DNA of 63,840 nt, filler included, from Hausera hauseri (GCA_046269625.1; 12 parts of 12 records of this genome joined end to end with filler, not necessarily neighbours in it), one strand, 5' to 3'; shown: positions 1,891 through 58,290, numbered from the whole stretch's first letter. Numbers and translations: made by a program. The notes: generated by a model from the sequence alone, not told the origin.

Positions 1891-1933
1891 TCGTAAACGA
1901 AGAGGAAGACCGGTATTTCTGCGGAAACGAAAA

Positions 1934-10062: not shown

Positions 10063-10208
10063 ATGGCAAAAATTGTCAGTTCACATGACGGAGAAACAGC
10101 AGCAGCGGCAGCAGCTGCGGCAGTTCTGTCACCGGAAGAAGCTAAAGGCTACCTGATACTGAAGCTCAAAGCATTCAATGGAAAATTGGGAAGTTTACTA
10201 TGATTTAA
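10063..10208 (+). pseudogene. 3' end of the conserved unknown ORF that accompanies pPolB (homolog of 54698-55162)
   Basis: IVSSHDGETAAAAAAAAVLSPEEAKGYLILKLK...GKFTMI matches the C-terminus of the 154-aa ORF. Confidence 0.8.
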
Positions 10209-10489
10209 CTGACTTACTTTGTGTTTTTGTGATTTTAGTTTTTCTCCAATCAATTAATAAATGTATTCGTATTATATATTTTGTTTTCTCGTACAAGATT
10301 ATTGTATTACTTTTACTTATATCTTACTTAATAATAATAGGTTAAGTAACCGAAAACAAAACACAATAGACACTAAACAAAGTACATGATTAACATTGAA
10401 ATAAAAAAATGTACAAATGATAATTGTCAATAACTGTCACAATATCAAGATCAGATTGAATTGCCTGTATCTGAAGGTGTTTTATTTCA

Positions 10490-14382: not shown

Positions 14383-17300
14383 AATATCCCCCCGTGGCTG
14401 AGTTGAAAACTGTAAAGATAAAATTAAAAGAAAATCCCGAAAACAAACAGTATAATTTGTTTAATAAGTTTTTGTGCGTACAAGACGTTGTAATCCTTCG
14501 TTATTTAATTTTCTACTATAGGTACTGAATGTAACTGATTTGCGATGTACCTTTACCTTAGTGTCTGACTGTTGACGGGGTTTGGCAAAAGAAACATTAG
14601 ATTTAGTATGATTGGGTGTTGTGTCTGGGGAAGGTAATGCAAAAGAGGGAAAAGAGGTGATTGTAGGTTAATTATTCCGGTTTTCTGCGATAGTTTCGGA
14701 AAGTGATAGGTTGAGAGAGGAAGTAGAAATAGGCAAAGGTATAGGTGTAATAAAAGTAGGAGGAGAGAAAAATGCGGAAATGGAGACAGGAATGGAATTG
14801 GTAGGTTACGATATATTCACAGAAACGGGGAAAGCGGAATGATGTGTGGTAGACTGAGGAATTGAAGTCGGGGTATAGGTGGGTACAGGGTGAGAAAAGA
14901 GGTTGATGTTTCGATTGGTGAGGTATCGTAGACGTAAAAGGCAGGTTTTAAATTAGTAATATGCACTACAACTTCTTTCCCGTCTTTGAGGATAATAGCG
15001 TTGTGCAAATGCAGCTGCACTAATTTATAGGGTCCTAAGTACTGTGGCTGGAAACCACACGGTGTCTGATTTTTTAACCATACAAACTTTGCCGAGTATA
15101 AGTCTTCTGGTATGTAAGATTTGTCATTATGTAAGAGCCTGCAAGACGAATCCTTGCTGATTGTAACGAAGTGATCCTGTGCTGCTCGTATACTCTCGTC
15201 TGTAGGGGTCTCTTCTAGAACGGTTAGTTCAAACAATGACTATACAGGGGCTCCGAATAAAGCTTCCGTTGGTGAGCATCCTGCGGAAGTGGATGGAGTG
15301 TTCCGCCAACCAAGCAGAACGAACGGTAGAAGGGTATTCCAATTTGTGTTTGATTGTGCAAGGATTCTAAGTGATGTTTTCAATGTTTGGTGGAAACGTT
15401 CGAAAAGGCCGTTCGATTGGGCGTGATAAAGTATTATATGAATGTGGCTTATTCCCAATCGGTTGACTAGGGATTTGAACAGATTTGATTCAAATTGAGG
15501 ACCTTGATCTGAGATGATATAACGATGGGCCCCGAACCTACTAATCCACGTTCGAATGAAAGTATCTGCTATTGTGTCCGAATTTGTGTTCCGCAGTGAG
15601 ATGGCTTTCGGCCATTGCGAGAAACGGTCCATCATGGTCAGAATAAATTGGTGGCCATTGTCTGTTGGGAGGGCACCGACTATATCAATATGTACTGTTT
15701 CAAAACGTGATATGCAGGGGAAGTGGTATATTGGTGGTTTCAAATGTTTTATTGTTTTATATTTTTGACAAACCACGCACTCTTTAATCTATGCTTGCAC
15801 ATCGGCGCACATGGAAGGCCAAACTACTGGATGTTGAAGCAAGCGAAAAGTTGCCTTGGCACCAAGATTATGTAATGAATGTATACTATCATATGTTTTC
15901 ATTTGTGTAAAGAAGAGCAAGAATTATTTTGGAATGTCCTGGTTTGAAATTATCTAAGGCCACACGGTCAACGATGTGGTGAGACCTGATCGACTTGAGA
16001 ATATCTTAAGATGGCTGATTTTCTTGACGTTTTAATGAAAAGTTGATTGAACCGACTGATCTAGATAAGACATCGGCAACTAGATTGTCAACACCGTCAA
16101 TGTGTTTAATGTCGAAGTTAAATGTGGATAAATATGAAATTTGTCGTTCTTGTCAAGTTGAAGGGTGGTTCATTGCCATTACATTAATCAACGGTTTGTG
16201 ATCAGTTTGAATAACAAAATGACGAGCTGTAAGTAAATGGGAAAAATGTTTTAAAGCAAGAACGATTGCCAGCAGTTCCCGATCGAAAGTTGAATATATA
16301 GTTTCGGGCAGTTTTAATTTTTGAGAAAAGAATTCTAGAGGCTGGTTTTCGCCTTTATATAATTTGTGTAGTACGGCGCTCACTGCGATGTTTAATGCAT
16401 CTGTGGTCAAAATTAGCTCAGCGTCAGGCTTAGGAAATGCTAGCATTTCAACAGTCTTTAGTCCTTTGCGTCGCCTATCAAACCTTTTAACCATTTGTGG
16501 TGTCAACTGGATTTTCTGGTGTTTTTTCCTCCGCTTAAGTGTGCAGAAGGTGCCATGAGTTCCAAACAATATGGAATATATTTGTGGACGAAATGCAAGG
16601 TACCAAGAAAACTGCGCATTTCTGTCGTTGTCCCAGGTAGTTGGACGTTTTTAAGAGTCTCAACTTGATCAGGCTAAGGTGAATGGCCGTTTGATCAGAT
16701 AATATGTCCACGAAAATTAACGCGTTTTTGGAAAAAGTTACATTTTGCAAAACTGATCTCTAAGTTGAACTGAATAAGTCATTTGAAGATAGATCATAGG
16801 TGTTCCTGGTGTTGTTTTACAGAAGAAGAAGCAACCAAGATATTGTCAATATATGTGTGTGCAAAAGGGAAGTCTGAAAGGATTGAATCGACGTGTCGCT
16901 GAAAAGTCTGCGTAGCACTCCGGAGACCGAAAGGCATGTACAAGTACTCATAAAGACCGAAAGGTGTGGTAAGGGTAGTTTTCCTGATGTCTTCCGGTGC
17001 GACAGGAATTTGATGGTATGCTTTTTCTAAATTAATTGTTGAATACATTGTAGTAGAATTAAGCTGATGTAATATGTCTTTATTCAATGGTAGTGGATAT
17101 GTATCCACTATGGTTAAAGTATTAAACTGGCGATAATCGCCGCATCGTCGGAAAGATTCATCTTTTTTGGAAAACGTGGATAGGAGAAGACCATGGGAAT
17201 TTAGATCTACGAACAATACCTAATTGTTCGAGTTCAAAAAATTACGCCTTTACTGCATGCCTGCGACAAGGTGACAATGGACGAACCTTTTGTCGAATTG

Positions 17301-17646: not shown

Positions 17647-20445
17647 GTGATAGTTAAGAGAATTAGTATGGGGTTGCGGTACAATACAATAATAGAAATA
17701 CCGGCAAACGAAGAAATATATAAGAACCCCTATGTGGACATAATTTATCGAAATCGGAACGCAAGTGGACGCCTAATACATTTGTTACTGCTGGAGCAAA
17801 AAGAAAAGCTCTATTACATGGCAGTAACCAATTTTGACCGACTGTTAAACATGGATCACCATCAGTTTGTCCAAAAGCGTATACAATGTAAATTGTGTCC
17901 TGCATGTCTGCATGGTTTCAGGTCAAAAACAACATAGGAGAAACATGTGACGCTGTTCAAGCAGAATTTAACGGAAACAACCATGTACGTCATGCCACCC
18001 AAAAAGGAGCTCCGATTCAATGACTGGTCGAAAACGGACAATCCGGCATATGTGTTATGTGCTAATGTTGAGGCAATTCTACCCCGGCACAACGTGCATG
18101 ATCAAAAACACGTTCCAATCGCCGTTGGTATATTGATTGTCTCAATAAAAGCGGTTGGTTAGCCGCGGTATTACGTCTTTCATGGCTGGAACTGTGTATG
18201 TGATTTCCTTCAGCGTTTGGAAACGATAGTGGAAACGGAAATCGAGCCGTGGTATCGCAATAATTCCACTAAACCATTGATTTGGACAGATGAATATGAA
18301 CCGAATATGTTCGCTGCGACCGATGAATGCTACTTGTGACACAAAATATTACCGTTCGATGCACACAAACGGCTCGTACAGGACTATGACCATTTCACCG
18401 GTCGATATTTGGGAGCAACATGCAATTCGTGAAATTTGGCCAGGCGTGTGCGGCCATTCCTGACTGTGATTTTTCATAACTTCCGGAGTTATGATTGTCA
18501 CCATATTTTAAAATGGGCCATTAATGGATTTCCCGCTGAGAACTATCAGTAATCTCAATAACAATGAAGAAATACCTGTCCCTGTCAGCACGCATAAACC
18601 GGTTCCAGGTACGCTTCCTAAAACATTGCAATATCTCAATGAGTCTCTATCAAAGCTCGTAAATGCCTGGAAGAATGTGCTGATAACATTGACGAAATTT
18701 CCCACATATTGCGCGTAGCAAAGACATTCCCGTATGACATTGCAACATCATATGAGCGACTTCGAATAGAAGAAGAATTACCGCCCCGATGGACAGGTGT
18801 CGCATAGGATGAATACTGGAAAGCACAAAAGTGTTGGACAGAACTCGGCTGTAGAAACATGTTTGATTACATGCTCCAGTATCTTAAAGTAGACATGTAC
18901 TTATTAGCCGATTTGTTCCAAGCGTTTCGAGCGAAAGCGTTGGCTGAAGATAGGCTGGAGCCACTCAACTTTTATTCCATACATGGAATAAGTTGGGTGT
19001 CATCTCTAATGTCACTGGATCGAGACATTAAGATGCTACAAGATCCGGAAATGTACCAAACTGTTTGATGTTGGTATTCGCGGCGGTATGATATTTGCCA
19101 ACAAGCATCAGGTCAGTGCTACCGATACCACATAAGTGTTGTATATTTATATTAATAACCTGTACGGCTGGGTGCTTTCACAACCCTTGTCGTACGGTTC
19201 ATTCGAATGGGTTGTCGACAGACGAAATCTGGACGACATAATGGTCAACCTACCACGAGCAGATATGGCAGTCTCAATCGGATACCTGATGGAGGTCGAT
19301 CTCGTGATACCAGATGAGATGCATGACATTTTGGACGATTTACCGGTCGGACCATCTAACCAATGTCCGCTAGACTCAAAAGTAAAGAAACTGCTCATGG
19401 CGCATGAACAGAAGCTGTATTACGTGGTCCATTGGCGTCTGCTACAGTTCTACATGCAGCTCGGTGTACGCGTCACACAGCTGCATCGTGTAATCCGATT
19501 TGCTCGGACTCCAATATTCAAGGCATACATAGATGGAAATTCGGAGAAACGAGCCACAGCTTCTACAAAGTTCAAAAAGGATTATTACAAGCTGAAAAAC
19601 AATCCCATGTACGGAAAAACAGTGGAGAATCTGAAAAATCGGCTCAATGTACGCCTAAGTAACAGCGAAAGGCGGCTGGTTACGTATACCAGCAAGGCAC
19701 AGTTTCAGCGGTCAATGCACATTGCCGACGGATTAGTATAGCTGCTGTTAAACAGAAAAGTCGTTCTGGACCGGTCAAATTACATCGGACAAGGGGTATT
19801 GGACCTGAGCAAGGTGCGCATGTATGAGCAACAGCATCGCGACTTGGCACGTTACCGGCAAATGTTCGACGGCTGTAACATGAGTATACTTGCCGCTGAC
19901 AGACGGTTTTTTCCTGCGGTTGAAAAGTCAATCGCAAACAGCTACTGCAGAAAATGCAGTCAGATGGATTACTGAACACGTCCAACTACCCACCGGAACA
20001 TCTGTTGTACAGCAGCGCGATAACCAACAAAATCGGCTGCTTCAAGGATGAATGTGAAAATCGGGATCACTATCGGGAATGGATATTCCTACGCTCAAAA
20101 TGCTACAGTCTTCTGACGGACTGTAGACCGAAAATGCGAGCAAAAGGAGTCCAGCTTAAGCAGACGGAAATCGGCCACGGTGATTATCGCCATATATCTA
20201 AATCAGCAGCAGCAGCAGAAGAAGAAGGAGGACAATCAGTGGTTGTTGTGTCTCAAACGATCATCCGATCAATTGAGCACCAGTTGTTCACAATAACTAG
20301 TGCGAAAGTCGCTTTGTCATGTAACGATGATAAGCGAAAGTGGGTGGGGCGTAATAAACTTTGGCATATGGACATTGGCAGCCGAAATAAACGCACGTCC
20401 AAACAATCGGTGCTCTGTCCGTTAAGATCAGTTTATTTCCTGTGA
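17647..20445 (+). mobile_element. Polinton/adintovirus-like pPolB, copy 2 (5'-truncated, degenerate)
   Basis: INNLYGWVLSQPL, YYKLKNNPMYGKTVEN, KIGCFKDE, ALSCNDDKR; collinear with copies 1 and 3. Confidence 0.9.
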
Positions 20446-20650
20446 CAGTCATTAACAATTATCCGATGTATATTGCATTTTTATATTTCAATAACGTATT
20501 TTGCTCAGCATCTTTTGTGTTTTGTTTTCGTTTACTTAACCTATTCATAAAAGTAAAACAATAACCTTGCTCGAGAAAACAAAACATGTAACACAAATAC
20601 ATTTATTTATTGATCAGAGAAAAACTAAAATCGCAAAAACACAAAGTCAG

Positions 20651-21100
20651 TTAAATCATAGTAAACTTACCCATTTTCCATATTGGGGATTTGATGCCGC
20701 TCCTTCCCTTAAATCCTCTGAGCTTCAGTGCCAGGCAGCCTTTAGGTCCTTCCGGTGGCCAAACTGCTGCTACTTCTCCGCTATGTGAAGCATATTTTCG
20801 CCATATTTCCTTTGAGAAAAATCGAAGATGTATCTCGGATATCGTTACTCAACGCAAATCACTGTCAACTTTTCTAATTGTGCCTTCCATTGTATCCAAA
20901 TCATCGTCGCTGATCTTTTTCACCAATAGACCATATTTCACCGGTTTGATTTTTACCGTTTGGGTCAATGGCAATTGAATAGCGTTGCGCAGATAATGTA
21001 AGTTGTATCCATTATACAATCAGAAATTTCTGAGCGAATATTTGCTGTACCGTGGCTTTTTTGAGAGACTGTGACCTGCTGAATTGTTTTCCAAAGACAT
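20651..21100 (-). pseudogene. Conserved unknown ORF next to pPolB (frameshifted homolog of 54698-55162)
   Basis: Starts MSLENNSAGHSLSKK, contains YNGYNLHYLRNAIQLPLTQ, ends WKMGKFTMI. Confidence 0.8.
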
Positions 21101-21239
21101 TTTTTTTAAAAAGACAAACGTGAAATAAAATTGCATCTCTATTTATATCAAATTTGTTCACACCGGTTTGCTTTCATTGTAAACAAGAGATATTTACTTT
21201 GTGAGAATTCTCATCAGAATGATACAAATTACCTCCACG

Positions 21240-21717
21240 TCTCCGTTCATTCGTAATGTGTACAATATCCATTATAACACATTTACATTCTGGACATTGG
21301 TGGGTTACTTTAGCGGTAGAACACATTTGACAAATAACAAGATGGCCGCACATTAAGAATACCGTGTACACTTTTCTTCGTTTACATAGTACACACAAAC
21401 TGACAGTCTCGTACTTTGTCCATTATTTTCGATTTCAGGTTCTTTAATTCACCGCGTACCTTTTCAACAGTATTGAAGTAATTTATAGTATACAATCGGT
21501 GAATGCACATTTGATTTAAAACAATAATTAGATTTTCTATAGAGCTGCAATCTGTTGTTGTATTCAATGCTATTGACGCTAAATCTTCTTTAAATCCAAA
21601 ATCACCTGCTGCTCTCGCAACCAGATGACTATCAAGTACTTGCCACCATCGTACCAAGTCTGAAATTGATAATCCCTAAAAATTTTGCAATTGCTTTAGT
21701 TGATTAACTATCTCCAT
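21240..21717 (-). pseudogene. IAP-like UBA + C3HC4 RING protein without BIR domains
   Basis: LDSHLVARAAGDFGFKEDLASIAL...SSIENLIIVL (IAP UBA-like), then CVLCKRRKVYTVFLMCGHLVICQMCS...CPECK (IAP-type RING). ATG at 21717, with an early stop and a frameshift. Confidence 0.72.
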
Positions 21718-22145: not shown

Positions 22146-23305
22146 TAGCAGCAAAGGAATAAAAAAAAAAAAAAGACAGCTGCACAAAAATTAGCTTATT
22201 ATTTTTAACCATTCAGAGATTCCATCTACATTCCCTTAAGTAACATATCTTATTGAATCACTTCACCATCTTAAAGCAACAATGGATATGAAAGAATATC
22301 CAAAAAAATAAAATAAAATAAAATTTGGTTATGAAGTCTTACCAGGAACTGAAATTTAAAGAGCACAAAACTATGTTATGACTTCATCAGGACTAAACTG
22401 TTACTGTTTCCTATCTTAACAGTCCTCTCCTTACACACTAAAGGATATGACACTAGGCCAAATTTTCTTGTAAAATGCAGCACATGAAAGGGTAATGTTG
22501 CCAACACAATACTTCACCACTTATAAATTCCCAGATAAACGTATCCAGTGATTTTTCACAGTAAAGTGAACTGGAGCATTCCTGCTGAAAACCTCTACAA
22601 TTTCCATGACAATTGTGTGCATAAATGCTCAGTCAATCGTCTGCTCCTTTTGTATTTTGCTTTCTAGTTCACTGCCTGATGTCCATGTCTCACGTGCACA
22701 CAATAATAATCAGTTGAAATAATTTTTCTAGTTTTTCATGGTGATGTAGCATCGTTACATTCTAGGTAGCTACTGCCATGTCTACTCGTCATAATTTTTC
22801 CATTTTTGTACCAAACGGTTACTTCACACCTTATACTGATGCATGCGGGAAGGCATGGTCATTGTTGATACCAGGCTGTGACCAATCCAGTATAATTTTA
22901 GCATTATTCACTGGACTTGAGCTGGGCAATTTTGTAAAGAATTTAAAAAAATAAAATAAAAGTTTTATACCATCAAAGCTCATCCCTCTCTGGGCGGTCA
23001 TTGTCTGTTACTATTCATTAGCCCATTACCTCAATTGGAACAGTTTTCAATGTGCACATCACAGAGGTGGGGGTAGCTTGTGTGTTCAAGGGTCATCAGC
23101 AGGCTACTAATTTTGACTTGTAACTCCTATGGAGTAAGAGCCAGCCGACCCCAACACCGCTGGCTGCAATGCCAGGTGCACAACACCAACTTCTTTATAT
23201 TCCCTTTCTCAATAAGATATGAAGTAACAGTTTTTATTCTAAATACATTGTAAGTGGCAATATGATAATTCTTAAACAAAAATTAACAGATCTTTTCAAT
23301 GTGAC

Positions 23306-23463
23306 CTTGTGTAAATAGCATCAATTACTCTTAGAGTTGCTGACTGTGCAGGTACGAATGATCCAATCTGAGCCATGATGCTAATCAGTGCTACCTGGCG
23401 GATGTACGAACTTTTCCCTCCCATGTTGGGTCCTGATATAACCATCACTCTCTGACCTTCTGC
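23306..23463 (-). CDS. MSH3: Internal exon of MutS homolog 3 (ATPase P-loop)
   Basis: 158-nt exon bounded by TTGCAG/GT encoding [63 protein letters not shown] favours MSH3 over MSH2. Confidence 0.82.
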
Positions 23464-23549
23464 CTGCAAGACAATAGAAAAATATAATAATAATGACCTA
23501 TTCACCTTGTGATACCACAAAACTGATGAAAATGAACACGAGTGTGGAG

Positions 23550-23715
23550 GAACCCATAATAGTGAATGACAGGCAGTTGGAAGAAGTGAAGTAATTTGTC
23601 TATCTTGGAAGCAAGGTTACATCAAATGGCGACTGCATGAAGGAAATAAATAGTAGAATAAGTCAAGCAAATTACAATTTTGCATCCCTCCGATCAATCT
23701 GGAAAACAAACATTC
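23550..23715 (+). mobile_element. RTE-like LINE RT fragment
   Basis: [37 protein letters not shown]. Confidence 0.7.
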
Positions 23716-34900: not shown

Positions 34901-35193
34901 ATACGGTAATGGGTTAAAATTCATATTTAATATTATTGTAGGTGTAAATTATTCTACAAAAAAGATGATAGAACTAACTGGAAGCGTCTTTAGAAGGCGA
35001 GGATCCCTGGTGGAGTGGAAGACGCGGCTCCTCGCTGACTTATGAACATGTCAGGACGTAGGTGACACTCTTAATCATAATGGAGAGTGTTCCNNNNNNN
35101 NNNNNNNNNNNNNNNNNNNNNNNNNNNNNNNNNNNNNTTAATTAATTAANNNNNNNNNNNNNNNNNNNNNNNNNNNNNNNNNNNNNNNNNNNN

Positions 35194-38100
35194 TCTGAAA
35201 GAAAATACAAAATAAGGGTCAATCCTAAAACAAAGTATTGTTCTAAAAATGAACCAATTCTTTGTTTGATAGTGGAATAACCCGATCTGTAGTTGTCAGG
35301 TTATTTCGTCATTAATTCCATCCTGTGGTACCATCACCCTTAATTCCTTGTCGGTGATTTTATGACGCTTAATACAACAGTTTTTTGTAATCAATCGACA
35401 AAACGCAATTAACATTATGAGAGCAAATGTTGATGATCCAATAATCGATATTAGTGACAAGGTTGTCTATTCAGTTAGTTTTTGTGTTTTAGTAGTAGTC
35501 GTAATTTCATATTCCTTTTCTCGTCAATCGGTGGTTTCGCTGGGACAGTCTCGTTGAGAGTCCGTGCCGTAAACGTTCTCCTTTGTTTGTTTCTGCAATC
35601 ATTTGTATTATATAATCCGTTTTGGGTTTCAGACCAGTGCATTTGGTTCGATAGCTACTCTTAACCAATGCTACTTTCTGATTATTGTGTAATGTTCGGC
35701 AGCTTATTTCTACGTTGTAGTTAAGGATCTTTAAGGATCCTTCTGAAACGATCTGTTCGTTGAAATGATTTTAAAGAGTGCTGGAGTAGTAGACTTTATT
35801 TTTGTATTTGTAATTCTACTCGTTGTCATTCCAAGTGAATTTTTCTGGATCGGATTTCTAAATCAGTAGTTTCCTAGAGAAATACTCGACTGGTTTGGTT
35901 TGACTTCATATAAGTTTAACTGAACTCTATATTTAAATTTCTGGGGTAACTTGCAGCATCTTTTCGGTTGCCCGACGTCGATTTAATAGTACTGTTGGTT
36001 TTGAGCTACTATGTTTTCTTTCAGGAACCGGAATGAGATTACTTGACCGTTAATTAATCTTACTTTTGTATTTATTTGAACACAATTGTCATTTGGATTT
36101 TCTTTTATACTGGCGATATTTTCTTCCAGCATCCGCTTTACTGGGTCGACGGACTGGAACATTTCGTTGGGTTTTATCCCAGGATGCCTGTTCCGAGCAG
36201 GGATGACTAATTGAAATCGTGGATTTATTTCATAAATTTGAGATAATTTTGGTAGACACAGTCGGTAGGTAAGGTTGCAAGTGCGTCCGAAATCCGTATC
36301 GCAACATTGCGTATGCTCTCCGGGCCCAAAATCACAATTCCTTGCTTCTTTTGTTATTACATCTTCTAGGACAATTTGAAATCTTTTAGAACTGTGGTGT
36401 TGTCCCGTGCCTTAAATCCAACGCATGTGGAGTTCGGCGAGTAATAATGAATTGTGACTGATTGTAATAACGTAATATCTTTTCTTCTTTGGATTTCTTC
36501 TAATGTTGGTATCTTTTCCGTTTTATTTACCTCTGGTTTGGATCCACTTTTCCGCCCTCCGTATACATTCTTTAGTGTAGATCCGTCGTGACACCACGGA
36601 GTTTGTGTTCTCGGAATATAAGAAGCAATTAGCGATGATGCTAAAACTATCTGAACGTATGATATCGGTCTGGTGATAATTGACGAGATCTTATTTTCTC
36701 GTGGTCTTAGATTGTAATGTTTAGCTGACCTTATATCCGTTTTAACTACTCTTTGAATCGATACGACTTCCTCTTTCCCGTTTTTATTGATATAAACTGT
36801 GGTTGGTGTTGTACGGATGATTTCATACGGTCCCTTCCAGTAAGTGTTAATTTTAAAGATGTACTTTCTTTGCGACTGGGTAATGTATATAAACCCAATT
36901 TCCCTTTTCCAGATCATGAGGCTTAGTCTTTTTATCATATTGTTTTTTAAATTGTTCCTGATATTCGATTGATAATGTTTTTGTCATTTCCCAACACTTT
37001 TGCAATCTGGTCTGTAAGACTTCGGCAAAATTTTGCTCTAGATCCTCGAGGATCTTTTTGTACGGTGTCATACCTAAATCTGTAGGTAAGATTGCTTCTC
37101 GTCCATACATCATAAAGAACGGTGTAAATCCTGTTGCTGGATGTGGAGTTGTATTTATCGCGAACTGTGTTCCTTCTAGGAATTCGTCCCAATCTTTTTG
37201 GTCTTTGGCCACTACTGTTGATAGTATAAGAATGACTGTTGCGTTCATACGTTCGACCATTCCATTACATTGGGAGTAATACGCGGTAGTAGTTAAACGT
37301 TCGATTTCAAATAACTTGGTAATTTTTTCAAATAATTCGCTTGTGAAGTTCCTTCCTCTATCCGTTAAAATCTGTTCTGGTGGTCCAGATCTGCAGATGA
37401 TTTTCCTTATTACCGCGTCGGCTAGGGTTTCTGCCTTTTGATCTAATACTGCCACCAGTTCAACGAAGTGCGTTAGTCGATCCACGCATGTTAGAATATA
37501 TCTTTTATTTTTGCGAGTTTTAGGCAAGGGTCCTACTATATCCATAGACATGGCTTGCATGGGACTATCTGGTACGTTTATAGGTTTTAATTCTGCTACG
37601 TAGCCTTTCGTTTTCTTTTGTTTTGTCGCGCAAACTTCGCACGCTCCTACCCAATTCTTTACATCGATATAGATGCTTGGCCAATAGTATTTATTTAATA
37701 TTCTTTCCTATGTCTTCTTCCAAGACATGTGTCCGGCTAAGTATGAATCGTGTTCGGCCATGAGTACTTCGATACGCAATCCTTTTGCAATAACTATTAG
37801 TCTTCTTCCTTTCCGCTCGTAATATGGGATATTATCTTGTTTTGATGCATGATATTTATGTCCGTGTTTCTGTAGATGCTTTTTTAGTTGTAGTCCCTTT
37901 GGTATTTTATCGTTTTGTAAGATCTCGATAATTTTCTGAATAACCGTGTCTTTAGCCTGCTCACTTGTAATTCTAATCGTCTTACCCGATATTAGAGTTC
38001 TTTGTCGTTCAATCAACTGTTCGAGTTTTGGCATTTTTATTGTGGTGATTGCACTCGTTTTTGTCTTTCATCTTGACAGTGCGTCGGCGTCGACGTGTTT

Positions 38101-39285
38101 GTTACCCGGTTTGTTTTGAAATTCAGTGTTATATCGTGAGATTTCCTTGATCCAACGGTTTAACTTACATGTCGGATTATTAGCTCGCCCATTCCATGTC
38201 GTAACTGCTTTATGATAGGTCGTTATTATAATCTTTCGTCCACAGACATAGGCATTAAAGTGTCGTAGTGCTTCGTTTACGGATAACGTTTCTAATTCGG
38301 TAACTGAATAATTCTTTTCCGCTTTCTTCAATGAGCGTCCTCCATAGGCTATTGGATGTTTTAATTCCTCGTCTTCTCTTTTCTGAGCTAGTTCGTACCC
38401 TATACCTTCTTTACTTGCATCTGTTTTAATGATGAATGGTAGGTTAAAATCCGGGTATCTTAAAACTGGTTCGCTTGTCAGAACTTTCTTAATTGCGTCG
38501 AATGCTTTTTGTTTCACTTCCTTCCATCTCCACTTAGTCCCTTTTTTGAGTAGGCGATATAGTGGTGCGTTAATTTTCGAATTGTTCGGTGCGTAAGTGG
38601 CATAATATCCGCATAGGCCTAACCACTGTCTTAACTCTTTTTGTATCTGCGGTTCCATGCAATCGGATATCTTAGTAGAGATTTGTCCGGTTTTGATCCT
38701 CCTTCTCCAACTATGTGTCCGAGGTACGATACGACGTTCTGTGCCCATTTACACTTTTTTGGATTTGGTTTCAACCCGGCTTGTTCCAGTCTCATAAGTG
38801 TATCCTCAATATACTTTAAGTGTTCTTCTTCTGTTTTTGATGCTATCATCACGTCGTCCAGGTGCGCGAATGCATGATCAAGTCCCATGAGAATCTTATT
38901 TATCATTCTAGTAAAATAGCTAGTCCTGTGATGATGCCGAAAGGCATAACATTAAATTCGTATACGCCATCGTGTGTTTTGAATACTGCCTTATATCGAT
39001 CTTCTTCTTCAATTTCCACTTGCCAGTATCCCGATTGTAAGTCGAGAGTGGTGAACCATTTCGCTTTTTATAGTCTGTCTAAAGCTTCTTTTACTGACGG
39101 TAGAGGCAACGAGTCTTTCATCATCAATGTGTTTAATGCGCGATAATCTATACAAAACCGATGTTTTGTGGTTCCTTTCTTCTTAACCATAAGTATGGGC
39201 GAGTACCATGATCGATAACTTGGTCGAATTATGTCGGACTTTAACACTTACTCTAATTCCTTAGTTATCTCCGGTCTCAATGAGT
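35194..39285 (-). mobile_element. pol: Gypsy family A, copy 2 (RT-RNaseH-IN plus 3' membrane-protein region)
   Basis: Motifs nearly identical to copy 1 (IIKTDASKEGIGYELAQ, EHDSYLAGHMSWKK, KDQKDWDEFLEGTQFAINTTPH). Confidence 0.95.
35296..36700 (-). pseudogene. Integrase-fused type I membrane protein (signal-like segment, Cys-containing ectodomain, FN3, TM)
   Basis: ORF 36366-36938 runs from the IN C-terminal WKGPYEI into YVQIVLASSLIASYIP. Downstream are CTGLKPKTDYIIQMIA (FN3 motif) and the TM LSLISIIGSSTFALIMLIAFC. Confidence 0.72.
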
Positions 39286-39385
39286 NNNNNNNNNNNNNNN
39301 NNNNNNNNNNNNNNNNNNNNNNNNNNNNNTTAATTAATTAANNNNNNNNNNNNNNNNNNNNNNNNNNNNNNNNNNNNNNNNNNNN

Positions 39386-41016: not shown

Positions 41017-41749
41017 CCACCTGTGTTTGAATATCTGAGTCCTGGATGTCGTATTTGGTCACATCTGGAGTGTTTCCCCCAGTGGACCATCCTTGTTGAT
41101 TAAATGGATGCCGGTCTCGTCGACACCTCTCCAATATTGGTTCTTTCTTCCTGAGGTTTTCGATAGCATTTCAACTAGACTTTTGGTGAGCATTTTGGTT
41201 TCCAAGCTGATATCCTGTTTTCGAGCCATCGTTTCGAGTTTCTTAGCAGTCTTCTCCAATTCTTTGTTCTGTTCAGCCTTTTTCTTTTGCAATTCATCAA
41301 GCATAATCGATATAGGAATTGTCGATAAGACGTTATCAGTTGTGTTCACGGAGATATTAGACATATCACTACTGGTTATACCATCCTCAATTTCACTGTG
41401 AATAAGACAGTCAATTAAACGATCCATTATTTGAAAGCTGATAATTGCAATATCCATGGACACCATTAGGACGTTGATTTCTTTCGTCACTATACGAGAA
41501 ACAGTCTGTTGAAGAAGTAATTCTTGAATGATTTGTTTCCGTTTGTCAAGTCAAGATCGAACGATCAGTCGAATAAAAGAATCCATTACATAATTGAAAG
41601 TCTGTGTTAAACGTTCGACAACAAATTGACACAACAGTTCGTAACTAGTGACAGTTTGATCAGATTTAGTGTAGGACATTGATATGATATGTTCATCACT
41701 GTTTCGATAATGTGATGACAGTTCACTGCTACTTTTCCGAGTGGTCAAA

Positions 41750-42085
41750 TGATTGATTTCCATTATTTGACGGACGATTTCATTTGCAATTTGATTACCC
41801 CACTCATTTATCAACGGCATATTTATATTATCAATAGAGATTGACAATTTTTTAGCAGCCGGTGGCCCAAATGTTGTGTCTACTTGTTTCTCAACAAAAC
41901 TTTCAATTGTGCGCTGAATTAATGCTGGAGTAGTAGCAGATGAAAAGTTAAAAGATTTAGAAACATGAGATTCAGGATTATATTTTGCCATAAATTTCGA
42001 TACTATAACTGTCTTAGCTGTTCCTTGTTCACCAATCAATGGGTCAGATTTCCCTTGTTTGGCAATGGTATCAATGAGAGTTTCA
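41750..42085 (-). pseudogene. Isolated fragment of axonemal dynein heavy chain (DNAH5/8-like, AAA3 P-loop)
   Basis: [10 protein letters not shown]...FNFSSATTP...[44 protein letters not shown]; no flanking dynein sequence. Confidence 0.8.
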
Positions 42086-42697
42086 GTCCTTACATTATCA
42101 ACATTAGGTACAAGAATTTTCGAATATCAGGAACGTGATCTGTGGCTCGAACCAAGGCAGATGTATTGGGATTGTCCGTATCGCTGTCCAATGATTGTAT
42201 AATATTATTGCAGAGTTTAAGACCAACGATACAAACATCAGGATTGGTGCTGCTGCCTCTGAGAGTGGCCAATGGGATGAAAATGAATGATAAGATAAAA
42301 ATGAATGATAATATGAAAGTCAATGACAGAATGCAAGTTGATGAAAAGATGAATGTAATGAGAGAATAAACATTTTATATGTTACGCTTTGATGTCATGC
42401 AATGTACTCAAATGATATAATGTGTAGCGCCCTAGGAGTAAGTTCGTGTCAAGAGTATCCCTCAGGATACAGCACTCTTTCTTCAGTGTGAGTTAACGTG
42501 AGTTGGATGTTTTGTTCAGCATCTTGTCTGAAGCCGCTACTAACGCTGCGTCCCACGTGAAGCTCCGTTAGGCCATTGTCATCATTTTGGCCGTTTTGTC
42601 TCGGAAGCAGGTGACACTGACCAGCAGCGCTGCTGGCCGAGCTATGTCGGCTGTAACCGCTGACCCGACGGTCACCCTCACGGTGGGACGCCGCTAG

Positions 42698-43864
42698 TCA
42701 TTCTGACAGCTGCGTGTTTGTATTGAGGGCATCTTCTTCGTAATCCCTCACTCCCTTACAAACCTTACATGACAGCAGACGCCGAAATGCGTTGTAGAAA
42801 TTTCTATTAAAATAATAATACAGTAGTGGATTCATAAGAGAGTTGATATAGCCGAGCCACAACGCAATCTGCCAGGGTACATACATCAGTGAGTATCCAA
42901 GCAGAGGGTCGATGATGTTCATAATGAAAAACGGAAACCAGCACACGGAAAAGCAGCCCATAATAATTCCAAGCGTTTTGGCTGCTTTGGATTCTTGTTT
43001 AAATTTGCTTTTTCTTTTGCAGTGATTATAATGATTATGATTCCCAGCAGCTTCAAGGGTTCGAATCTGATGCGCTTGTTTGACAGCCGCCATGTATATC
43101 TTTACATTACAGACAGCCATAAACGCTACGGGAATGTAGAAAGCTATCAAGGAGCAGATAAATGCGAAAGGTATATTCACGACGAACGAGCAGACTTTGG
43201 CGTCTGTTGGATACGCGCAGCTGACAATGTCTTCAATTCCGACATGATTCCATTCATTGAAGATGGGAATAAATGAGATGAAGATCGGTGTCATCCAACA
43301 GAAAGCAAGCATAGCTGCCACCCAACGGAAAGATAAACGTTCGTGGAGAAACGGGCGACAGATGGCAAGGTAGCGGTCTATGGCGAGGCACGACAGATGA
43401 AAAATTGACACGGTACACATCATAACATCAAGACTGGATGAAAGCTTACAAAGCAACTCGCCAAGATGCCAGACTCTGTTGTTGACTTCTTGGTATATGG
43501 AAAACGGCATGACGAAGAGGGAAACACACATATCAGCAACAGCCAATGAAACCACGAAAGCGTTTGTAGGCGTCCTGAGTTTTCTGTGTGTTATGACAGC
43601 TAAAATGACGACGCAGTTCCCAAACATGGTCAGGATCGGCACGCATATGAGAACCACTGAAATAGTGTATCTCATGGCGTCGTCGTATTCTGGAGGTGGA
43701 CCGGCCATATGGGCCAAAATTTCCTCGCATTTTAATGGTGATGAATTGAAGTTGTTTTCCGCCACTGGATGAACTGTAACGTCGGCGTTGATGTAAGCCA
43801 AATGATCGATCTCCTGTGGGGAAATCGAAGTTACTAGATCATGTCGACTACCTTTAGATACCAT
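42698..43864 (-). CDS. HTR4: 5-HT4-like aminergic class A GPCR, coding region uninterrupted
   Basis: GN, SLAVAD, D3.32 (LDVMMC), DRY, WMTPIFISFIPIFNEWN, CSFVVNIPFAFICSLIAFYIP, KAAKTLGIIMGCF.VCWFPFF, WLGYINS.MNP.LY. TM4-TM7 closely resemble 5-HT4. First ATG at 43864; a splice acceptor-like TTCTTGTAG lies just upstream. Confidence 0.88.
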   Translation of the reverse strand: MVSKGSRHDLVTSISPQEIDHLAYINADVTVHPVAENNFNSSPLKCEEILAHMAGPPPEYDDAMRYTISVVLICVPILTMFGNCVVILAVITHRKLRTPTNAFVVSLAVADMCVSLFVMPFSIYQEVNNRVWHLGELLCKLSSSLDVMMCTVSIFHLSCLAIDRYLAICRPFLHERLSFRWVAAMLAFCWMTPIFISFIPIFNEWNHVGIEDIVSCAYPTDAKVCSFVVNIPFAFICSLIAFYIPVAFMAVCNVKIYMAAVKQAHQIRTLEAAGNHNHYNHCKRKSKFKQESKAAKTLGIIMGCFSVCWFPFFIMNIIDPLLGYSLMYVPWQIALWLGYINSLMNPLLYYYFNRNFYNAFRRLLSCKVCKGVRDYEEDALNTNTQLSE

Positions 43865-44039
43865 CGTGTGCACACATTTATTGAAACGCACTGGCTACAA
43901 GAAATACATTAATGTTAACCAGCCAATACTATTAAGCTCAAAACTATTATTTTAATATTTCTTACTTGAGAATTGATGCCCTTTAATGTTAATTACTTGA
44001 TTAATGGAGATCTTTGGAGTTATTTAAACTTATGAAGGG

Positions 44040-50364: not shown

Positions 50365-50532
50365 ATTATTGTTGCTTTCATATCAACCACGTAGAGAGGA
50401 CCACCACCGAAAAATAATATTTATGCCCATATCATGATTGACGGCGAGTTTTTCATCCTGCCAACCGTGTATCGTGGATTGAAACTCTATCCAACAGGAC
50501 GGCGAACAAATGTGGAGAAGCTGTAGAACTGT
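50365..50532 (-). repeat. Inverted partial copy of the adjacent Tc1 transposase (pairs with ~50860-51030)
   Basis: The reverse complement aligns by eye over ~165 nt with scattered substitutions. Confidence 0.85.
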
Positions 50533-50769
50533 TTAATGACGCTGTCATCACTAAACAGAGTGGTAGACCACTCTGTAACACTCTAGGTTTTATAGCGCTG
50601 TGCAAATGCCAAGCGGTTCTTGATGTTTTTGGCTGACAAGTGATGAGTAACTGACAGTCGGTGAGCTCGCAGGCCAAAATCATGCTACAGACTGTGTCGG
50701 ATTGTTCTGGAATTAGTGGGTTGTTGCAACTAAGCTACAATGAATGACGATGATTCAGTTAGATCTTTG

Positions 50770-51406
50770 ATTACCATGCGCTTGATGGAAAGCTCAGTAG
50801 CTGGCGTGTAGCAGATTGGTCAACCACTCTGTTTAGTGATGAGAGCATTCTACATCGTTTTACAGTTCTACAGCTTCTCCACATTTGTTCGCCGTACTGT
50901 TGGAGAGCGTTCCAATCCACGATACACGGTTGGCAAGATGAAAAACTCGCCGTCAATTATGATATGGGCATCAATATCATGTTCCGGTGGTGGTCCTCTC
51001 TACGCGGTTGATAAGGAAGCAACAATAACAGAGGCGTACTACCTCTCAATTCTTCAGCTGTACCTCCTGCCGATACTGACAGTCCACTCATGATAACTTT
51101 TCAACAAGATGGGGTTCCGGCTAATATTGCTTACTCGGTGCGGAGATGGCTGGCTGAAAATAATGCCAACGTTTTTGAACCATGGCCTGGCAACTCAGCT
51201 GACCTGAATCCTATCGAAAATTGTTTGGTGATGGTGAAAAGAAAGTTTGGCGAGCTACAGCCAACGTCTCTGAGTGATCTGGAAGAGAAAATGAAGCGAA
51301 TGTGATAAACAGAAGTAACTGCCGAGTATTGGCGTCACTGATTAAATCGATGCCAGAACGCCTGGTAGCTGTGATTCGTGCCAGAGGTGGGCCAACAAAA
51401 TATTGA
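50770..51406 (+). mobile_element. Tc1-family transposase catalytic domain remnant (DD35E spacing in this copy)
   Basis: WSTTLFSDES, IMIWASIS, FQQDG...WPGNSADLNPIEN, MPERLVAVIRARGGPTKY*. Confidence 0.9.
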
Positions 51407-51708: not shown

Positions 51709-52739
51709 ATGAAAACGATAAGCAACCAAATTAAAAGAACTTAAATAATTGAGGTTTTTCTGCATCATATTTCCAACCGAAAAGTGACCAGAGATCACTT
51801 TTGTCAGCAAGGATTCAACATACGATTCATCGGCCGAGCACTAGAACAGCATTGTAAAAATAAAATCATCAGATACAAGCAGTCAACAGGCCGAATTCCA
51901 AAAGTAGAGACTCCTAAGAACGCGAAAACGTTGAAGCATCGTCTAATCAAGAAAACTTCACTTTCTGGAAGAGCCGCAGCAAAGGATCTGAAAATTTCTG
52001 AGGCCAGTGTCCTAAGACTAAAACGAGATCTTGGTATTGTAACAAGGACCAAGCGGAGTGCACCTTTGTATAAAAATGATCAAAGTGAAATGGCAAATAA
52101 ATGCTGTAAAAAGGTATACAAACAGTTAATCCCATCGGGCGGAAAAAAATTCGTAATTATGGATGACAAAACTTATGTGCCGTTCAATTACACTCAGTTA
52201 CCCGGGAAACAGTTTTGGAACGACATTCCAGACGATTTCAAGGTGAACAGGAGAGAAAAATTCCCGGTCAGATTTCTTGTATGGCAAGAAATAGCGCAAG
52301 ACGGAACTGTAAGCAAACCCTTTATTGTCAAAAAGTCTTTAAACGGTCAGATCTACCTCGATGACATATTTCGAGACCCATTTTTGAATTTTTCAAGTCG
52401 CAAATGAACAAGGGTAACTTGTTATTTTAGCCTGATTTGACTGCAAGCCACTACTGTAAACCGGTGGTTGACTTTTTGAAGCAGCAGAAAGTCGAGTTTG
52501 TGCAGAAAATTGACAACTCGCCAAATGTGCCACAATGCCGGACTATTGAAAATTTTTGGGCCCTCAGCAAGCTGGAGTATTTTAAAACTGGGAAAAAACT
52601 TCCCTATATAGCGGCGTTTAAGCGGAAGTGGACCCAAATCTCAACTCTGGTGACCCTCAAACATGGGAAATCACTGTTTAGTGGCTTCAAACAGAAGTTA
52701 CGATTAGTCGGTGATAATGGACCGCGATATATTGTATGA
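51709..52739 (+). mobile_element. DD37E (TRT-like) Tc1/mariner transposase, frameshifted
   Basis: FVIMDDKTYV, FLVWQEI, PDLTASHY...NSPNVPQCRTIENFW; 37 residues between D and E. Confidence 0.85.
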
Positions 52740-54060: not shown

Positions 54061-54529
54061 CTAAAGCAGTTGCAAAATTTTGATGGATTATCATTTTGAG
54101 ATTTGGTACGATAGTGGCAAATAATTGATAGTAGTCTGGTTGCGAGAGCAGCAGGTGATTTTAGATTTAAAGAAGATTTAGCGTCAATAGCATTGATGAC
54201 AGCAACAACAGATTGCACCAACAACAGATTGCAGCTCTATAGAAAATCTAATTGTTGTATTAAATCAAATGTACATTCACCGATTGTACGATACAAATTA
54301 CTTTAATACTGTTGAAAAGGTATGCGATGAATTAAATAAAAATATGGACAAAGTACGAGACTGTCAGTTTATGTGTGTACTATGTAAACAAAGAAAAATG
54401 GATATGGTATTCTTAATGTGCGGCCATCTCGTTGTTTGTCAAATGTGTTCCACCACCACCAAAGTAACCAACCAATGTCCAGAATATAAATGTGCTATAA
54501 TGGAAATTGTACACATTCATTACGAATGA
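54061..54529 (+). pseudogene. IAP-like UBA-RING protein, second copy
   Basis: Homologous to 21240-21717; RING CVLCKQRKMDMVFLMCGHLVVCQMCS...CPEYKC. Confidence 0.72.
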
Positions 54530-54650
54530 CTTCTTCTTCTTCATTAACGGAACGTGGGTTTCAATGACGTGGAGGTAATTTGTATCATTGTGGTATGAGA
54601 CAATACTCATAAAGTAAATATCTATTGTTTACAATGAAAACAAAACTTTG

Positions 54651-54660
54651 ATATAAATAG
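54651..54660 (+). promoter_or_regulatory. Conserved TATA box upstream of the 154-aa ORF
   Basis: TGATATAAATAGAGATGC occurs about 45 nt before the ATG here and in the paralog (reverse strand, ~21133-21150). Confidence 0.5.
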
Positions 54661-54697
54661 AGATGCGATTTCAGTTCACGTTTGTCTTTTTTATACA

Positions 54698-55162
54698 ATG
54701 TCTTTTGAAAACAATTCAGCAGGTGACAGTCTGCCAAAAAAGCCACAGTACAGCGAATATTCGCTCAGAAATTCCCGGTTGTATAATGGATACAACTTAC
54801 ATTATCGGCGTAACGCTATTCAATTGCCACTGACGCAAAGGGTTAAAATCAAACCGGCGAAATATGGTCTATTTGTGAAAAAGATCAGAAACCATGATTT
54901 AGATACGATGGAAGACACAATTAGAAAAGTTGATAGTGATTTGGAGTTGAGTAACGATATCTCAGATACATCGTCGATTTTTCTCATTGGAAATATGTCA
55001 GAAATAGTCAGTTCACATGGCGTAGAGACAGCAGCAGCAGCAAAAGCAGTTTTGCCACCGGAAGACGCTAAAGGTCATCTAAAATTGAAGATGAAAGGAT
55101 ACATGGATCTATACGGCGTTAAATCGCCAATATGGAAGCTGGGAAAGTTTACGCTGATTTGA
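54698..55162 (+). CDS. Conserved hypothetical 154-aa protein of the pPolB element
   Basis: Intact ORF; homologous sequence sits beside all three pPolB copies. Confidence 0.75.
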   Translation: MSFENNSAGDSLPKKPQYSEYSLRNSRLYNGYNLHYRRNAIQLPLTQRVKIKPAKYGLFVKKIRNHDLDTMEDTIRKVDSDLELSNDISDTSSIFLIGNMSEIVSSHGVETAAAAKAVLPPEDAKGHLKLKMKGYMDLYGVKSPIWKLGKFTLI

Positions 55163-55405
55163 CATACTTTATTTTGATTTTAGCTTATGATGATTAATAA
55201 ATTTTATTGATTTTGTTTGTTTGTTTTTTATATTGTTTCTCGTCAGATTAAGTTAAGTATAAAGGACATTAAATGATAATAAAATAATAAAACAAAAGGC
55301 AAAACAATGAACAATATACATTATTTATAAAACAGAGATCTCAACAAAATGTCATAGTTAATTGATCTGTCTGCACCGATTTCATCTATGTATGTGCGTG
55401 TTTCA

Positions 55406-58290
55406 TTACAAACGCCAATGTTCGTAAGCCCAACTCTTATTCCGCCCCACACACTTACGCTTATCATCATTGTATGATAAAGCGACTTTTGAATTGGTTA
55501 CCGTATACAGCTGGTGCTCAATCAACCAGATGATCGTTTGTGAAATAACACCATTTGATTGTCCTCCTCCGTCTCCTCCTTCTTCATAGACACGGCGATA
55601 ATCACCGTGGTCGATTTCCGTCTGGGCCAGCTGAACGCCTTTTGCGCGCATTTTAGGTCCACAGTTCGTCAGGATACTGTAGCACTTTGTGCGTAGGAAT
55701 ATCCATTCTCGGTACGGAACATGGCCTTCGCTTTCATCCTTGAAGCAGCCGATTTTGTTCCTGATGTCGTTGCTATACAGCGGATCATTCTGCGGGTTAT
55801 TGGATGTGTCCTGTAGTCCATCTGCCATCATTTGCCGGAGTAGTTGGTCGCGATTGAAGTTTTTCAGCTCAAGGAAAAATCTGTCTGTGTCACCGGCAAC
55901 GATACTTATCTTACAGGTGTCGAACACTTGCCGGTAACGTGCAAAGTCGCGATACTGGAGCTCGTATGTTCGCAACTTGTTCAGGTCCAATACCACTTGT
56001 CCGATATAGCTTGGTCGATCCAGTACGACTTCTTCGCTGTTTAACAGCACCGCAACCAATCCATCGGTAATGTGCATTGACCGCCTGAACTCAGCCTTGC
56101 TGGTGTACGTAATCAGGCGCACATTGAGTCACTTTTTGAGGTTCTCTAGTGTTTTTCCGTAAAGGGAATTATTTTTCAACTTGTAGTAGTACTTTTCGAA
56201 CTTTGCACAAGTTGCGGCTCGTTTCTTCGAGTTTCCGTCAATGTACGCCTTGAATATCGGCGCCTAATTGAATTTGATTGCGCGATGCAGTTGTGTGACG
56301 CGTACACCGAGCTGCATGTAAAACTGCAGTAAACGCCAATGAATCACGTAATTCGATTTGGGTTCATGCATCATGAGCAGATTCTTCACTTTTGAGCCGG
56401 GCGGATATTGGCTGATTGGTGTCACGTGTAATTCGTCCAGAGCGTCATGCAGCTCATCTGGTACCAAAAGATCGACTTCCATTAGGTAGCCTACTGAGCT
56501 GCTTTCTGTCGTGTTTGCTGCTGACAGACTGTCCAGCAATGTATCCAGTTCTTGTCGGTCAATTATCCAATCAAATGAAGCTTACGGCAAGGGTTGAGAA
56601 AGCACCCAGCCGTACAGGTTATTAATGTCCATGTACAACATTGATGCGGCATCATCATTGTCATTAGTGGTTACGTAATGCTTGTTGACAAATGTCATGC
56701 CGATACGAATACCAACATCAAATAGTCAATACATTTCCGGGTCTTGCAACAACTCAATTTCCCTGTCCAGCGAGATAAGTGCCGATGTCCAACTCACCCC
56801 CGGTATGGAGTAAAATTTTAGCGGCTCCAGCCTATCATCCGCCAACGCCTTAGCACGAATGTCTAAAACACATCGGCTAACAAGTACACGTCCAGTTTCA
56901 GGTACTGGAGCATGTACTCCAACATGTTTTTGCAGCCGAGCTCTGTCTACGCTTCCCGTGCTCTGTGGTACGCGTCCTCTGTGATTCCGGCCCATTGTGG
57001 CAGAAATTCATCTCTTGTCTGAAGCCGTTTGTACGACACAGCAAAGTCATATGGGAATATGTCTTTGCTGCGTGCAATATGCGCGGGAAACTGCGTCAGC
57101 GTTATAGAGACATCGACAAGGCACTTACGAGCTTTCCTAGAGACTCATTGAGGAACTGTAGTGAGTCAAGAAACCGTACCTGGAACCGGTTTGTGCGTGC
57201 CAACTTCTCTATCGTTGTTGGAATTATAGTTAGTTCCCAGTGCGGAAATCCGTTTATGGCCCGTTTCAAAATATGGTGAAAATCATAACATCGAAAGTTA
57301 TGAAATACCACCAGTAGGAATGGCCGCACACGCCTTGCCAAATTGCATCAAACGGTAATATTTTTTGGCACAGGTAACATTCATCTGTGACTGCAAATGT
57401 CATGCGTTCATCTTCATCTGTCCACATCAAATGTTTGTTGCTATTTCTATTGTAACAGAGTGCGACTTCCGTTTCTACTATTGTTTCAAACTGATGCAGG
57501 AAATCGCGTACACAGTTTTAACCATGAAAAACGTAATATTGCGGTTGACGTGCAGCTTTTATTGAGACAACCAACATACGGACGGCGATTGGAACATGTT
57601 TTTGGTCATATATGTTGTGCCGTGGTAATATAGTTTCGATATCGGCATATACTACATATGGCGGACTGTCTGTTTTTGACCAATCAGTGAATCTGAGTTC
57701 CTGTTTGACGGGCATGACGTACATTGTGGTTCCCGAGGAATTGTGTTTGCACAGAGTCACATGTTTCGTCCATGTTGTTTCCGATCTGAACCCGTGCAGA
57801 CATACGGGAAACCATTTACACCGTATACGCTTTTTGATGAACTGGTTATGTTCCATGTCCAACAATTTGTCTAGATTTGTCACTGCAACGTAATGGAATT
57901 TTTTCTTTTGCTCTAATAACAACATACTTTTGGGCGGCCATTTGGGTTCCGACTACGGTAGATTATATCCACAGGGGGTTTTTGTAAATTTCTTCATCCG
58001 CGGTATTTCTACGATTGCGTTGTACCGGAACACATTGATTGTCAGTGTCGGACTACGCCGTTCAAATGTCGGAATGGATTTCAGTTTAATCGGCATACAG
58101 CATCCGTCGTAATTTAAATCGGAAAATATTTCTGATACTGGTCTAGACGATATGCACTATGTCTGTCCACTTTGTCGTATTTCAATACCGCCAGAATACT
58201 ATAAAGAAAACAGTATTAATCGTTAGTATATTTTACATTCACTACCGCAAGAGACTGCATCAGAGCTGCAGGTGTCGGCATGAATGATCG
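55406..58290 (-). mobile_element. Polinton/adintovirus-like pPolB, copy 3 (degenerate)
   Basis: VVYADIETIL, FHNFRCYD, YMDINNLYGW, KLKNNSLYGKT, VAGDTDRFF, ALSYNDDKR. Confidence 0.92.

Follow-up and report, generated by a model that had tools for sequence, protein, structure and literature searches.

A Ty3/gypsy retrotransposon family in the genome of Hausera hauseri (GCA_046269625.1) carries a gene that follows the integrase and codes for a membrane protein, predicted to be built from fibronectin type III (FN3)-like domains. The gene lies in frame with the integrase tail in two copies of the family, its cysteine and transmembrane (TM) plan recurs in four sequences, and a gB-type glycoprotein gene is present in a third copy. 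Our preferred but tentative reading, to which we give somewhat less than an even chance, is that the FN3 gene is the element's own and encoded a second envelope protein, serving attachment beside a gB-type fusogen. The layout of gB-type errantiviruses is already known, and what appears to be new is the extra FN3 membrane protein behind the integrase.

The window, by which we mean the whole stretch of 63,840 nucleotides that was analyzed, consists of 12 short scaffolds (4.1–7.9 kb) joined by 11 identical 100-nt N/TTAATTAATTAA linkers (e.g., 35094–35193 and 39286–39385). Because separate scaffolds are joined in this way, the neighbourhood of genes on either side of a linker is artificial, and linkage of neighbours across linkers was rejected. 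One Ty3/gypsy family occurs on three of the scaffolds, as copy 1 at 1–5647 (+), copy 2 at 35194–39285 (−) and copy 3 at 58547–63840 (+), all alike disrupted by stops and frameshifts. Over the shared pol span, nucleotide identity is 75.4% between copies 1 and 2, 78.3% between copies 1 and 3, and 73.6% between copies 2 and 3. The protease-reverse transcriptase (RT)-RNase H-integrase order of Ty3/gypsy elements (Metaviridae) was recovered by Pfam on copies 1 and 2, with a weak match for the protease (RVP, E 0.028), the translation of which contains a DTG motif. These four domains occupy 1856–5647 (+) in copy 1. In copy 2, a partial and broken RT extends to the scaffold edge at 39285 (38750–39285, −; 72–80% nucleotide identity to copy 3), and the region of copy 1 that matches it was assigned to RVT_1 (E 4.5e-38); it is followed by the RT connection and RNase H (38068–38748, −; RT_RNaseH_2, E 1.9e-33) and by the integrase zinc finger and core (36853–37707, −; rve, E 2.3e-14; Integrase_H2C2, E 4.4e-7). 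The nearest database Pol is 40% identical in integrase. All three scaffolds stop inside the element: copy 1 begins at the gB signal, at the start of its scaffold, and ends inside integrase, while the scaffolds of the two FN3-bearing copies finish 102 and 418 nt beyond the stop of the FN3 gene, and no repeat of the element ends (LTR) was found within the window.

The first-pass annotation had described an integrase that reads in frame into a signal-like segment and a membrane protein. The translation of copy 2 agrees with the central part of this description, as a single stop-to-stop frame at 36366–36983 (−), with its first ATG at 36938, contains the GPY module (36833), the HYNLRPR motif (36719) and the hydrophobic segment (36659). 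From the GPY module to the signal the description holds in both copies 2 and 3, but it fails for copy 2 on either side of this stretch, where a frameshift near 36870 parts the GPY/signal frame from the integrase core (ORF 36853–37707) and the ectodomain lies in pieces, with a frameshift near 36405–36425 followed by further shifts and stops. Copy 3 likewise keeps the GPY module and the signal in a single frame, and tblastx aligns this stretch with copy 2 as one block of 211 codons, at 49% identity and with stops. As the integrase-signal frame is seen in both copies, it is therefore no accident of one copy. The C-terminal GPY module and HYNLRPR of copy 2 (36699–36850, −), in frame with what lies downstream, match Pfam MLVIN_C at E 0.001, below the cut-off, and are followed by the signal-peptide-like segment (36585–36698, −), placed by hydropathy and codons with an h-region at about 36624–36656. 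This segment is 59% identical to the N-terminus of an intact database homologue, P0071, and its hydropathy rises to 2.1–2.3 over 11 residues without reaching the threshold set for 19 residues, which is how a signal h-region would behave. In both copies an ATG is absent from the stretch between GPY module and signal. Immediately ahead of the signal, P0071 has a Met and copies 2 and 3 have Ile codons, and since P0071 is a separate protein call that begins in this way, the fusion to Pol may not be universal. A YAG occurs just 5′ of the h-region in both copies (about 36672–36690, −, and 62003–62025, +) and may be a possible splice acceptor, or simply a conserved Arg codon.

Behind the signal, copy 2 retains the remainder of the gene in recognizable order. 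By tblastn to P0071, FN3-like domain 1 falls at approximately 36205–36455 (−; model strands 77–161, with a frameshift inside) and domain 2 at approximately 35860–36117 (−; with in-frame stops). Domain 3, which contains the L.P..DY.I motif, falls at approximately 35550–35780 (−; with frameshifts), its copy 3 equivalent being the one that was folded. They are followed by a TM helix at approximately 35389–35454 (−), aligned to the TM of copy 3 and of the database homologues P0070 and P0071, and by a cysteine-containing and basic cytoplasmic tail with a TGA stop (35296–35388, −; translation and alignment). The corresponding gene of copy 3, with signal, three domains, TM and tail behind integrase, is likewise broken and lies at 61973–63422 (+; tblastx and translation). 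Alignment confirmed that the Cys motifs, the L.P..DY.I motif and a single TM are common to copies 2 and 3. Hydropathy over 19 residues of the TM reaches 3.1 in copy 3 and 2.3–2.95 in P0070 and P0071, and both hydropathy and the model helices fit the predicted type I membrane plan of one signal, predicted to be cleavable, and one TM. The C-terminal end falls at the same aligned position in all four sequences (copies 2 and 3, P0070 and P0071), which are 30–49% identical and across which the Cys pattern, signal, TM and stop position are retained.

Faster divergence of the ectodomain than of pol, which had been judged by eye, was evident from nucleotide windows between copies 2 and 3: identity is 60–80% in 17 pol windows, 73% in the signal window and 52–66% in the next nine, and past the stop it stands at 78%, above the pol average. 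The ectodomain identity of 0.59 is close to a gapped shuffled baseline (mean 0.535, maximum 0.56, 20 shuffles), and its alignment score of 346 is far above the shuffles (at most −22 in 20); at the protein level, blocks of the ectodomain are 31–51% identical. A receptor-binding or immune-exposed role, as proposed in the first-pass annotation, is one candidate, but faster divergence of this kind would fit any surface protein. In sequencing run X1, one contig leaves out most of the ectodomain that lies between signal and domain 3 (35616–36667), with a short side of only 27 letters, a weak hint of an internally deleted derivative.

The domain structure is drawn from predicted models. AlphaFold2 on P0071 (9-row alignment, mean pLDDT 60) gave a helix at residues 16–29, beta-sandwiches at 77–161 and 191–282 (block pLDDT mostly 71–84), a poorly modelled third sandwich at 327–385 and a TM helix at 429–455. 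Foldseek with this model returned 289 PDB matches at E ≤ 0.001 (best E 3.2e-6), and the rows listed comprise fibronectin, tenascin, Robo, DCC/neogenin, Tie2, LAR, cytokine receptors and tissue factor, at 7–16% identity and with low whole-chain TM-scores of 0.13–0.19. In a re-ranking of the Foldseek hits, domain 2 was realigned to fibronectin with Z 9.2 (rmsd 2.1 over 85 residues) and domain 1 to EpoR with Z 7.7 (rmsd 2.6 over 89 residues). Domain 3 of copy 3, folded alone, formed seven strands (pLDDT 61), and its model had zero Foldseek matches at E ≤ 0.001; in a wide search, fibronectin was the best of 48,161 chains with a Z of 7.4, which is under 8 (rmsd 2.9 over 79 residues), and non-FN3 Ig-like folds reached Z 6.3, about 1 Z below fibronectin for a model with a pLDDT of only 61. 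The FN3 or beta-sandwich fold proposed from the sequence is thus predicted by AlphaFold2 and the fold searches, with domains 1 and 2 well supported in the model as seven-strand FN3-like sandwiches and domain 3 likely, if weakly supported, as a third. Pfam fn3 remained below its gathering score (best 13 bits against 25, E 0.12, on P0070), and a feature-based Atlas search placed FN3-clan clusters at 0.83–0.88, which is under 0.9 and makes them leads only. In a viral structure library, the matches were FN3-type phage and giant-virus proteins and herpesvirus membrane proteins, with a fish herpesvirus protein at the top (E 1.2e-6). It should be noted that FN3 is a common fold and that the fold alone shows no function. 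The top Atlas row for P0071 is a 433-aa cluster of 166 mostly arthropod proteins (0.88), which are possible relatives.

Relatives of the FN3 protein are few. A HMMER scan of 1,835,955,588 representatives with the copy 3 piece as query found only two, P0070 (189 aa, 49% identical) and P0071 (479 aa, 36% identical), both of which are ENA singletons and may stem from the assembly to which the window itself belongs. Of the two, P0071 is intact over its 479 aa, with signal-like N-terminus, ectodomain, TM and tail. A search for the nearest host FN3 donor, as the first-pass annotation had suggested, found none among these 1.84 billion representatives. Word-seeded protein searches returned none of 252 candidates with the copy 3 piece and one of 5,669 with a profile, namely P0071 itself, while PDB sequence searches gave no match at E ≤ 10 with the FN3-protein profile and one match, at chance level, with gB. 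At the DNA level, scans of viral contigs, JGI metagenomes and prokaryote genomes with the FN3 gene revealed no relative, nor did scans of viral contigs with integrase or gB. A metagenome scan with integrase identified 10 loci (28–39% identical), and neither gB nor the FN3 gene was present in any of the 10.

The copy 2 region (35194–39285) is represented by 15,969 and 1,462 contigs in two of two sequencing runs, with 30 of 30 bins covered in each; the two runs come from two studies with two organism labels, and their contigs are mostly under 95% alike. In run X1, the variants listed for sites within the FN3 gene are carried by 12–96 contigs. Being covered by many diverged contigs, the FN3 gene is therefore multi-copy, like pol, and the combination of many distinct contigs with homology that two diverged copies share from integrase until beyond the stop argues that it is part of the element. 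Among the matches listed in the two runs, no contig spans the whole element.

The gB-type (class III) fusion glycoprotein gene of copy 1 (1–1890, +; Pfam Monjiviricetes_fusion, E 1.5e-64), absent from the earlier account of the FN3 protein, has stops inside and is near-complete, covering profile positions 6–599 of 653. It lies directly upstream of the protease, so that a class III envelope gene stands before pol as in the GAG-ENV-POL layout of errantiviruses, in copy 1 only. In the same two runs, the gB region (1–2900) is covered by 8,789 and 737 contigs, many of them diverged, again with 30 of 30 bins in each. Other contigs carry length variants at the env-pol junction, and for this reason the frame change at this junction in copy 1 may be decay. 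The gB and FN3 genes were seen together on no scaffold or contig and are linked only through pol identity; as the pol of copy 1 is more similar to that of either FN3-bearing copy than these two are to each other, the family quite probably had both genes. The gB-type fusogen upstream of pol shifts the reading of the FN3 protein from an odd env to what is probably a second envelope protein other than the fusogen. None of the four post-integrase proteins matched F-type or gB-type env families in Pfam at E ≤ 10, which makes the FN3 protein an unlikely fusogen, and with a full gB-type gene in copy 1 this role was rejected.

If the FN3 protein was a second envelope protein, translation of Pol would continue through integrase into the internal signal sequence, or a spliced message would supply an alternative start. 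Signal peptidase would then release the ectodomain into the ER lumen, the TM would halt transfer and anchor the protein, and the protein would reach the membrane where particles bud. Incorporated beside gB, it would bind a surface molecule of the target cell and gB would perform fusion, a split that would resemble herpesvirus gD and gB by analogy. Labour in herpesviruses is divided between gD and gB. Rhabdovirus G and baculovirus GP64, which are class III proteins, attach and fuse without a partner, and the gB of this family need not therefore have had one. A continuous gag-env-pro-pol frame is said to have been described in nematode elements by Sacco et al. in 2022. A more specific version of the proposal, two-component entry, is doubtful when taken as a whole: gB before pol and an FN3 receptor-binding protein after integrase would both derive from one polyprotein that crosses the ER membrane repeatedly, with readthrough giving a long-tailed form of the attachment protein.

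Several other roles would account for part of the same evidence. The FN3 protein may have been cargo that the producing cell exposed on its surface as a receptor mimic or immune decoy, there to bind a host ligand or to block superinfection by sister elements, and tandem disulfide-bearing FN3 domains do resemble cytokine-receptor ectodomains. Class I/II cytokine receptors and tissue factor fill many of the structure-match rows, the fish herpesvirus protein heads the viral library at E 1.2e-6, and the ectodomain is the most diverged part of the element; we nonetheless consider this role unlikely, as plain fibronectin repeats score equally well or better, the WSXWS motif is absent from the printed sequences of the FN3 proteins, and the tail is only about 25 residues long. 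FN3 repeats are also typical adhesion modules, and an adhesion protein for direct cell-to-cell spread could have served some lineages as an alternative to gB. The occurrence of the gB and FN3 genes on different scaffolds only would agree with such a division, and env-free cell-to-cell transmission of retrotransposons is the subject of a preprint, going by its title (PMC11952523). This alternative appears quite unlikely, given that the gB-bearing copy 1 falls inside the pol spread of the two FN3 copies and that, within the same two runs, many contigs cover the gB and the FN3 region alike.

The gene may otherwise contribute nothing to the element, or not belong to it. FN3 single-pass proteins are ordinary animal genes (as in the Atlas leads at 0.83–0.88), and a captured fragment of one, carried as a passenger without benefit, would diverge faster under relaxed constraint, consistent with an ectodomain nucleotide identity near the shuffled baseline. 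Retention of the signal, Cys pattern, TM and stop position in four sequences that are 30–49% identical, one of them intact over 479 aa, and the lack of a host-type homologue among 1.84 billion representatives make a passenger very unlikely. That the region is a host gene beside an insertion, or duplicated with one, and so outside the element, is scarcely credible: a 3′ LTR could not be shown in the window, which would suit a host flank, but two copies that are 74% identical in pol remain homologous without a break from integrase across the stop, introns are absent, the frame is shared with integrase, and 12–96 contigs of run X1 carry the listed variants inside the gene. The region as host flank was rejected on the unbroken homology, the shared frame and the many variant contigs. 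The preferred reading remains the second envelope protein.

Comparison with known elements places the novelty behind the integrase. The sections available of Chary and Hayashi (PMC13524379) describe gB-type GAG-ENV-POL errantiviruses in nematodes, bryozoans and flatworms, and an ENV-GAG-POL arrangement in two mites. Like copy 1, these elements have the PR-RT-RH-IN order and a gB-type glycoprotein upstream of pol, whereas copies 2 and 3 add a membrane protein behind the integrase; gag and the LTRs are outside the scaffolds of the window. The terms 'fibronectin' and 'FN3' do not occur in the accessible main text and seven supplementary files of that paper. In the Ty3/gypsy proteins P0026 and P0030 (Daphnia), the frame of the integrase tail continues, as here, through a hydrophobic signal to a membrane protein, but their cargo is a Baculo_F fusogen (PF12259), while the window copies encode an FN3 tandem without a fusogen match. 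P0026, where integrase is read into a signal and an F-type env, offers a precedent for the expression route. Another gypsy protein, P0019, also has an integrase tail that runs into a hydrophobic signal-like stretch. LTR elements of bdelloid rotifers likewise carry a family-specific ORF after pol, in some cases with TM and Cys (Rodriguez et al., PMC5408684, in the parts available); according to the same source, these ORF3 products are GDSL esterases, DEDDy exonucleases, F-type env and TM proteins of 210–230 aa, in place of the FN3 protein found here. 'Fibronectin' does not occur in the available text of that paper, nor is it mentioned in that of Kojima (PMC12440569).

Cellular FN3 single-pass proteins, such as those with fibronectin repeats, class I/II cytokine receptors and tissue factor, carry tandem sandwiches before one TM, as is predicted here. 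The window protein differs from them in being 7–16% identical, below the Pfam fn3 cut-off and without a PDB sequence match or donor. Herpesviruses pair a gB-type fusogen with a separate beta-sandwich surface protein, gD, which this family may resemble; the likeness of the FN3 protein to gD or gH/gL is one of analogy only. No FN3 cargo in such elements is described in the full texts searched; subscription papers and repeat databases were mostly outside reach, and an existing annotation is possible. Among the matches listed for papers that join gypsy, retrotransposon and fibronectin type III, none concerns an element-encoded FN3 protein, judging from titles and the openings of abstracts, and no paper title among the matches listed reports a second envelope protein in errantiviruses.

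Errantiviruses of the gB type occur widely among animals, and PMC13524379 states (section 11) that their attachment and entry are unknown and, noting that HSV gB needs gD/gH/gL, leaves entry of these elements unexplained. A second surface protein built from FN3 domains gives the missing step of attachment a concrete candidate and, if two-component entry is true, would be the first candidate partner for a retrotransposon gB. If the envelope role is true, an LTR element would have recruited a cell-adhesion fold into its envelope; as a decoy or passenger, the gene would still be a new type of extra ORF, with a narrower meaning. Cargo behind the integrase can escape surveys that look no further than gag, pol and env.

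The sequence that follows the FN3 gene has features in common between the two copies. TGA-CAA-CTA with a predicted long stem-loop occurs at 35202–35298 (−; z −4.13) in copy 2 and at 63420–63516 (+; z −3.35) in copy 3, so that hexamer and stem-loop follow the TGA in two of two copies, with a spacer of 4 nt to a weak helix and 13 nt to the main helix. The common stem-loop has 25 consensus pairs, 0 broken and 3 compensatory, and with only two sequences its covariation is not above shuffles (66 of 500). Both CAR-YYA and 3′ stem-loops after spacers of 7–12 nt are readthrough signals (Firth et al., PMC3159437, in the part available). Beyond the stop of copy 3 (63423–63840, +), the 139 codons of the continuing frame include 3 stops, and the two other frames include 6 and 14. 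Over the first 32 codons past the stop, the 22 differences between copies 2 and 3, counted by eye, fall 7/8/7 on the codon positions, a spread that does not show coding constraint beyond the stop, and the sequence after the stop matched no Pfam domain and no Rfam family. Judged from sequence, TGA-CAA-CTA with the stem-loop is a possible readthrough signal, though an export or packaging element is as likely.

Other elements and genes share the window. Three decayed copies of a second element, 75–79% identical to one another (10063–13419, 17673–21699 and 54061–58289), encode a DNA polymerase B of the protein-primed type (PF03175, E 1.8e-5) and are possibly Polinton-like. An unrelated second LTR-type pol with RT, RNase H and rve lies at 14820–17219 (−), on the same scaffold as one of the polymerase-B copies. 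An intronless rhodopsin-family GPCR (42698–43894, −), a piece of a dynein motor (41551–42126, −), a C-type lectin (6564–7235, +) and a MutS_V piece (23296–23616, −) are also present and speak for an animal as host, and there is a 220-nt inverted repeat (87%; 50366–51028 and 51745–52407) near an ORF with a weak HTH_6 match.
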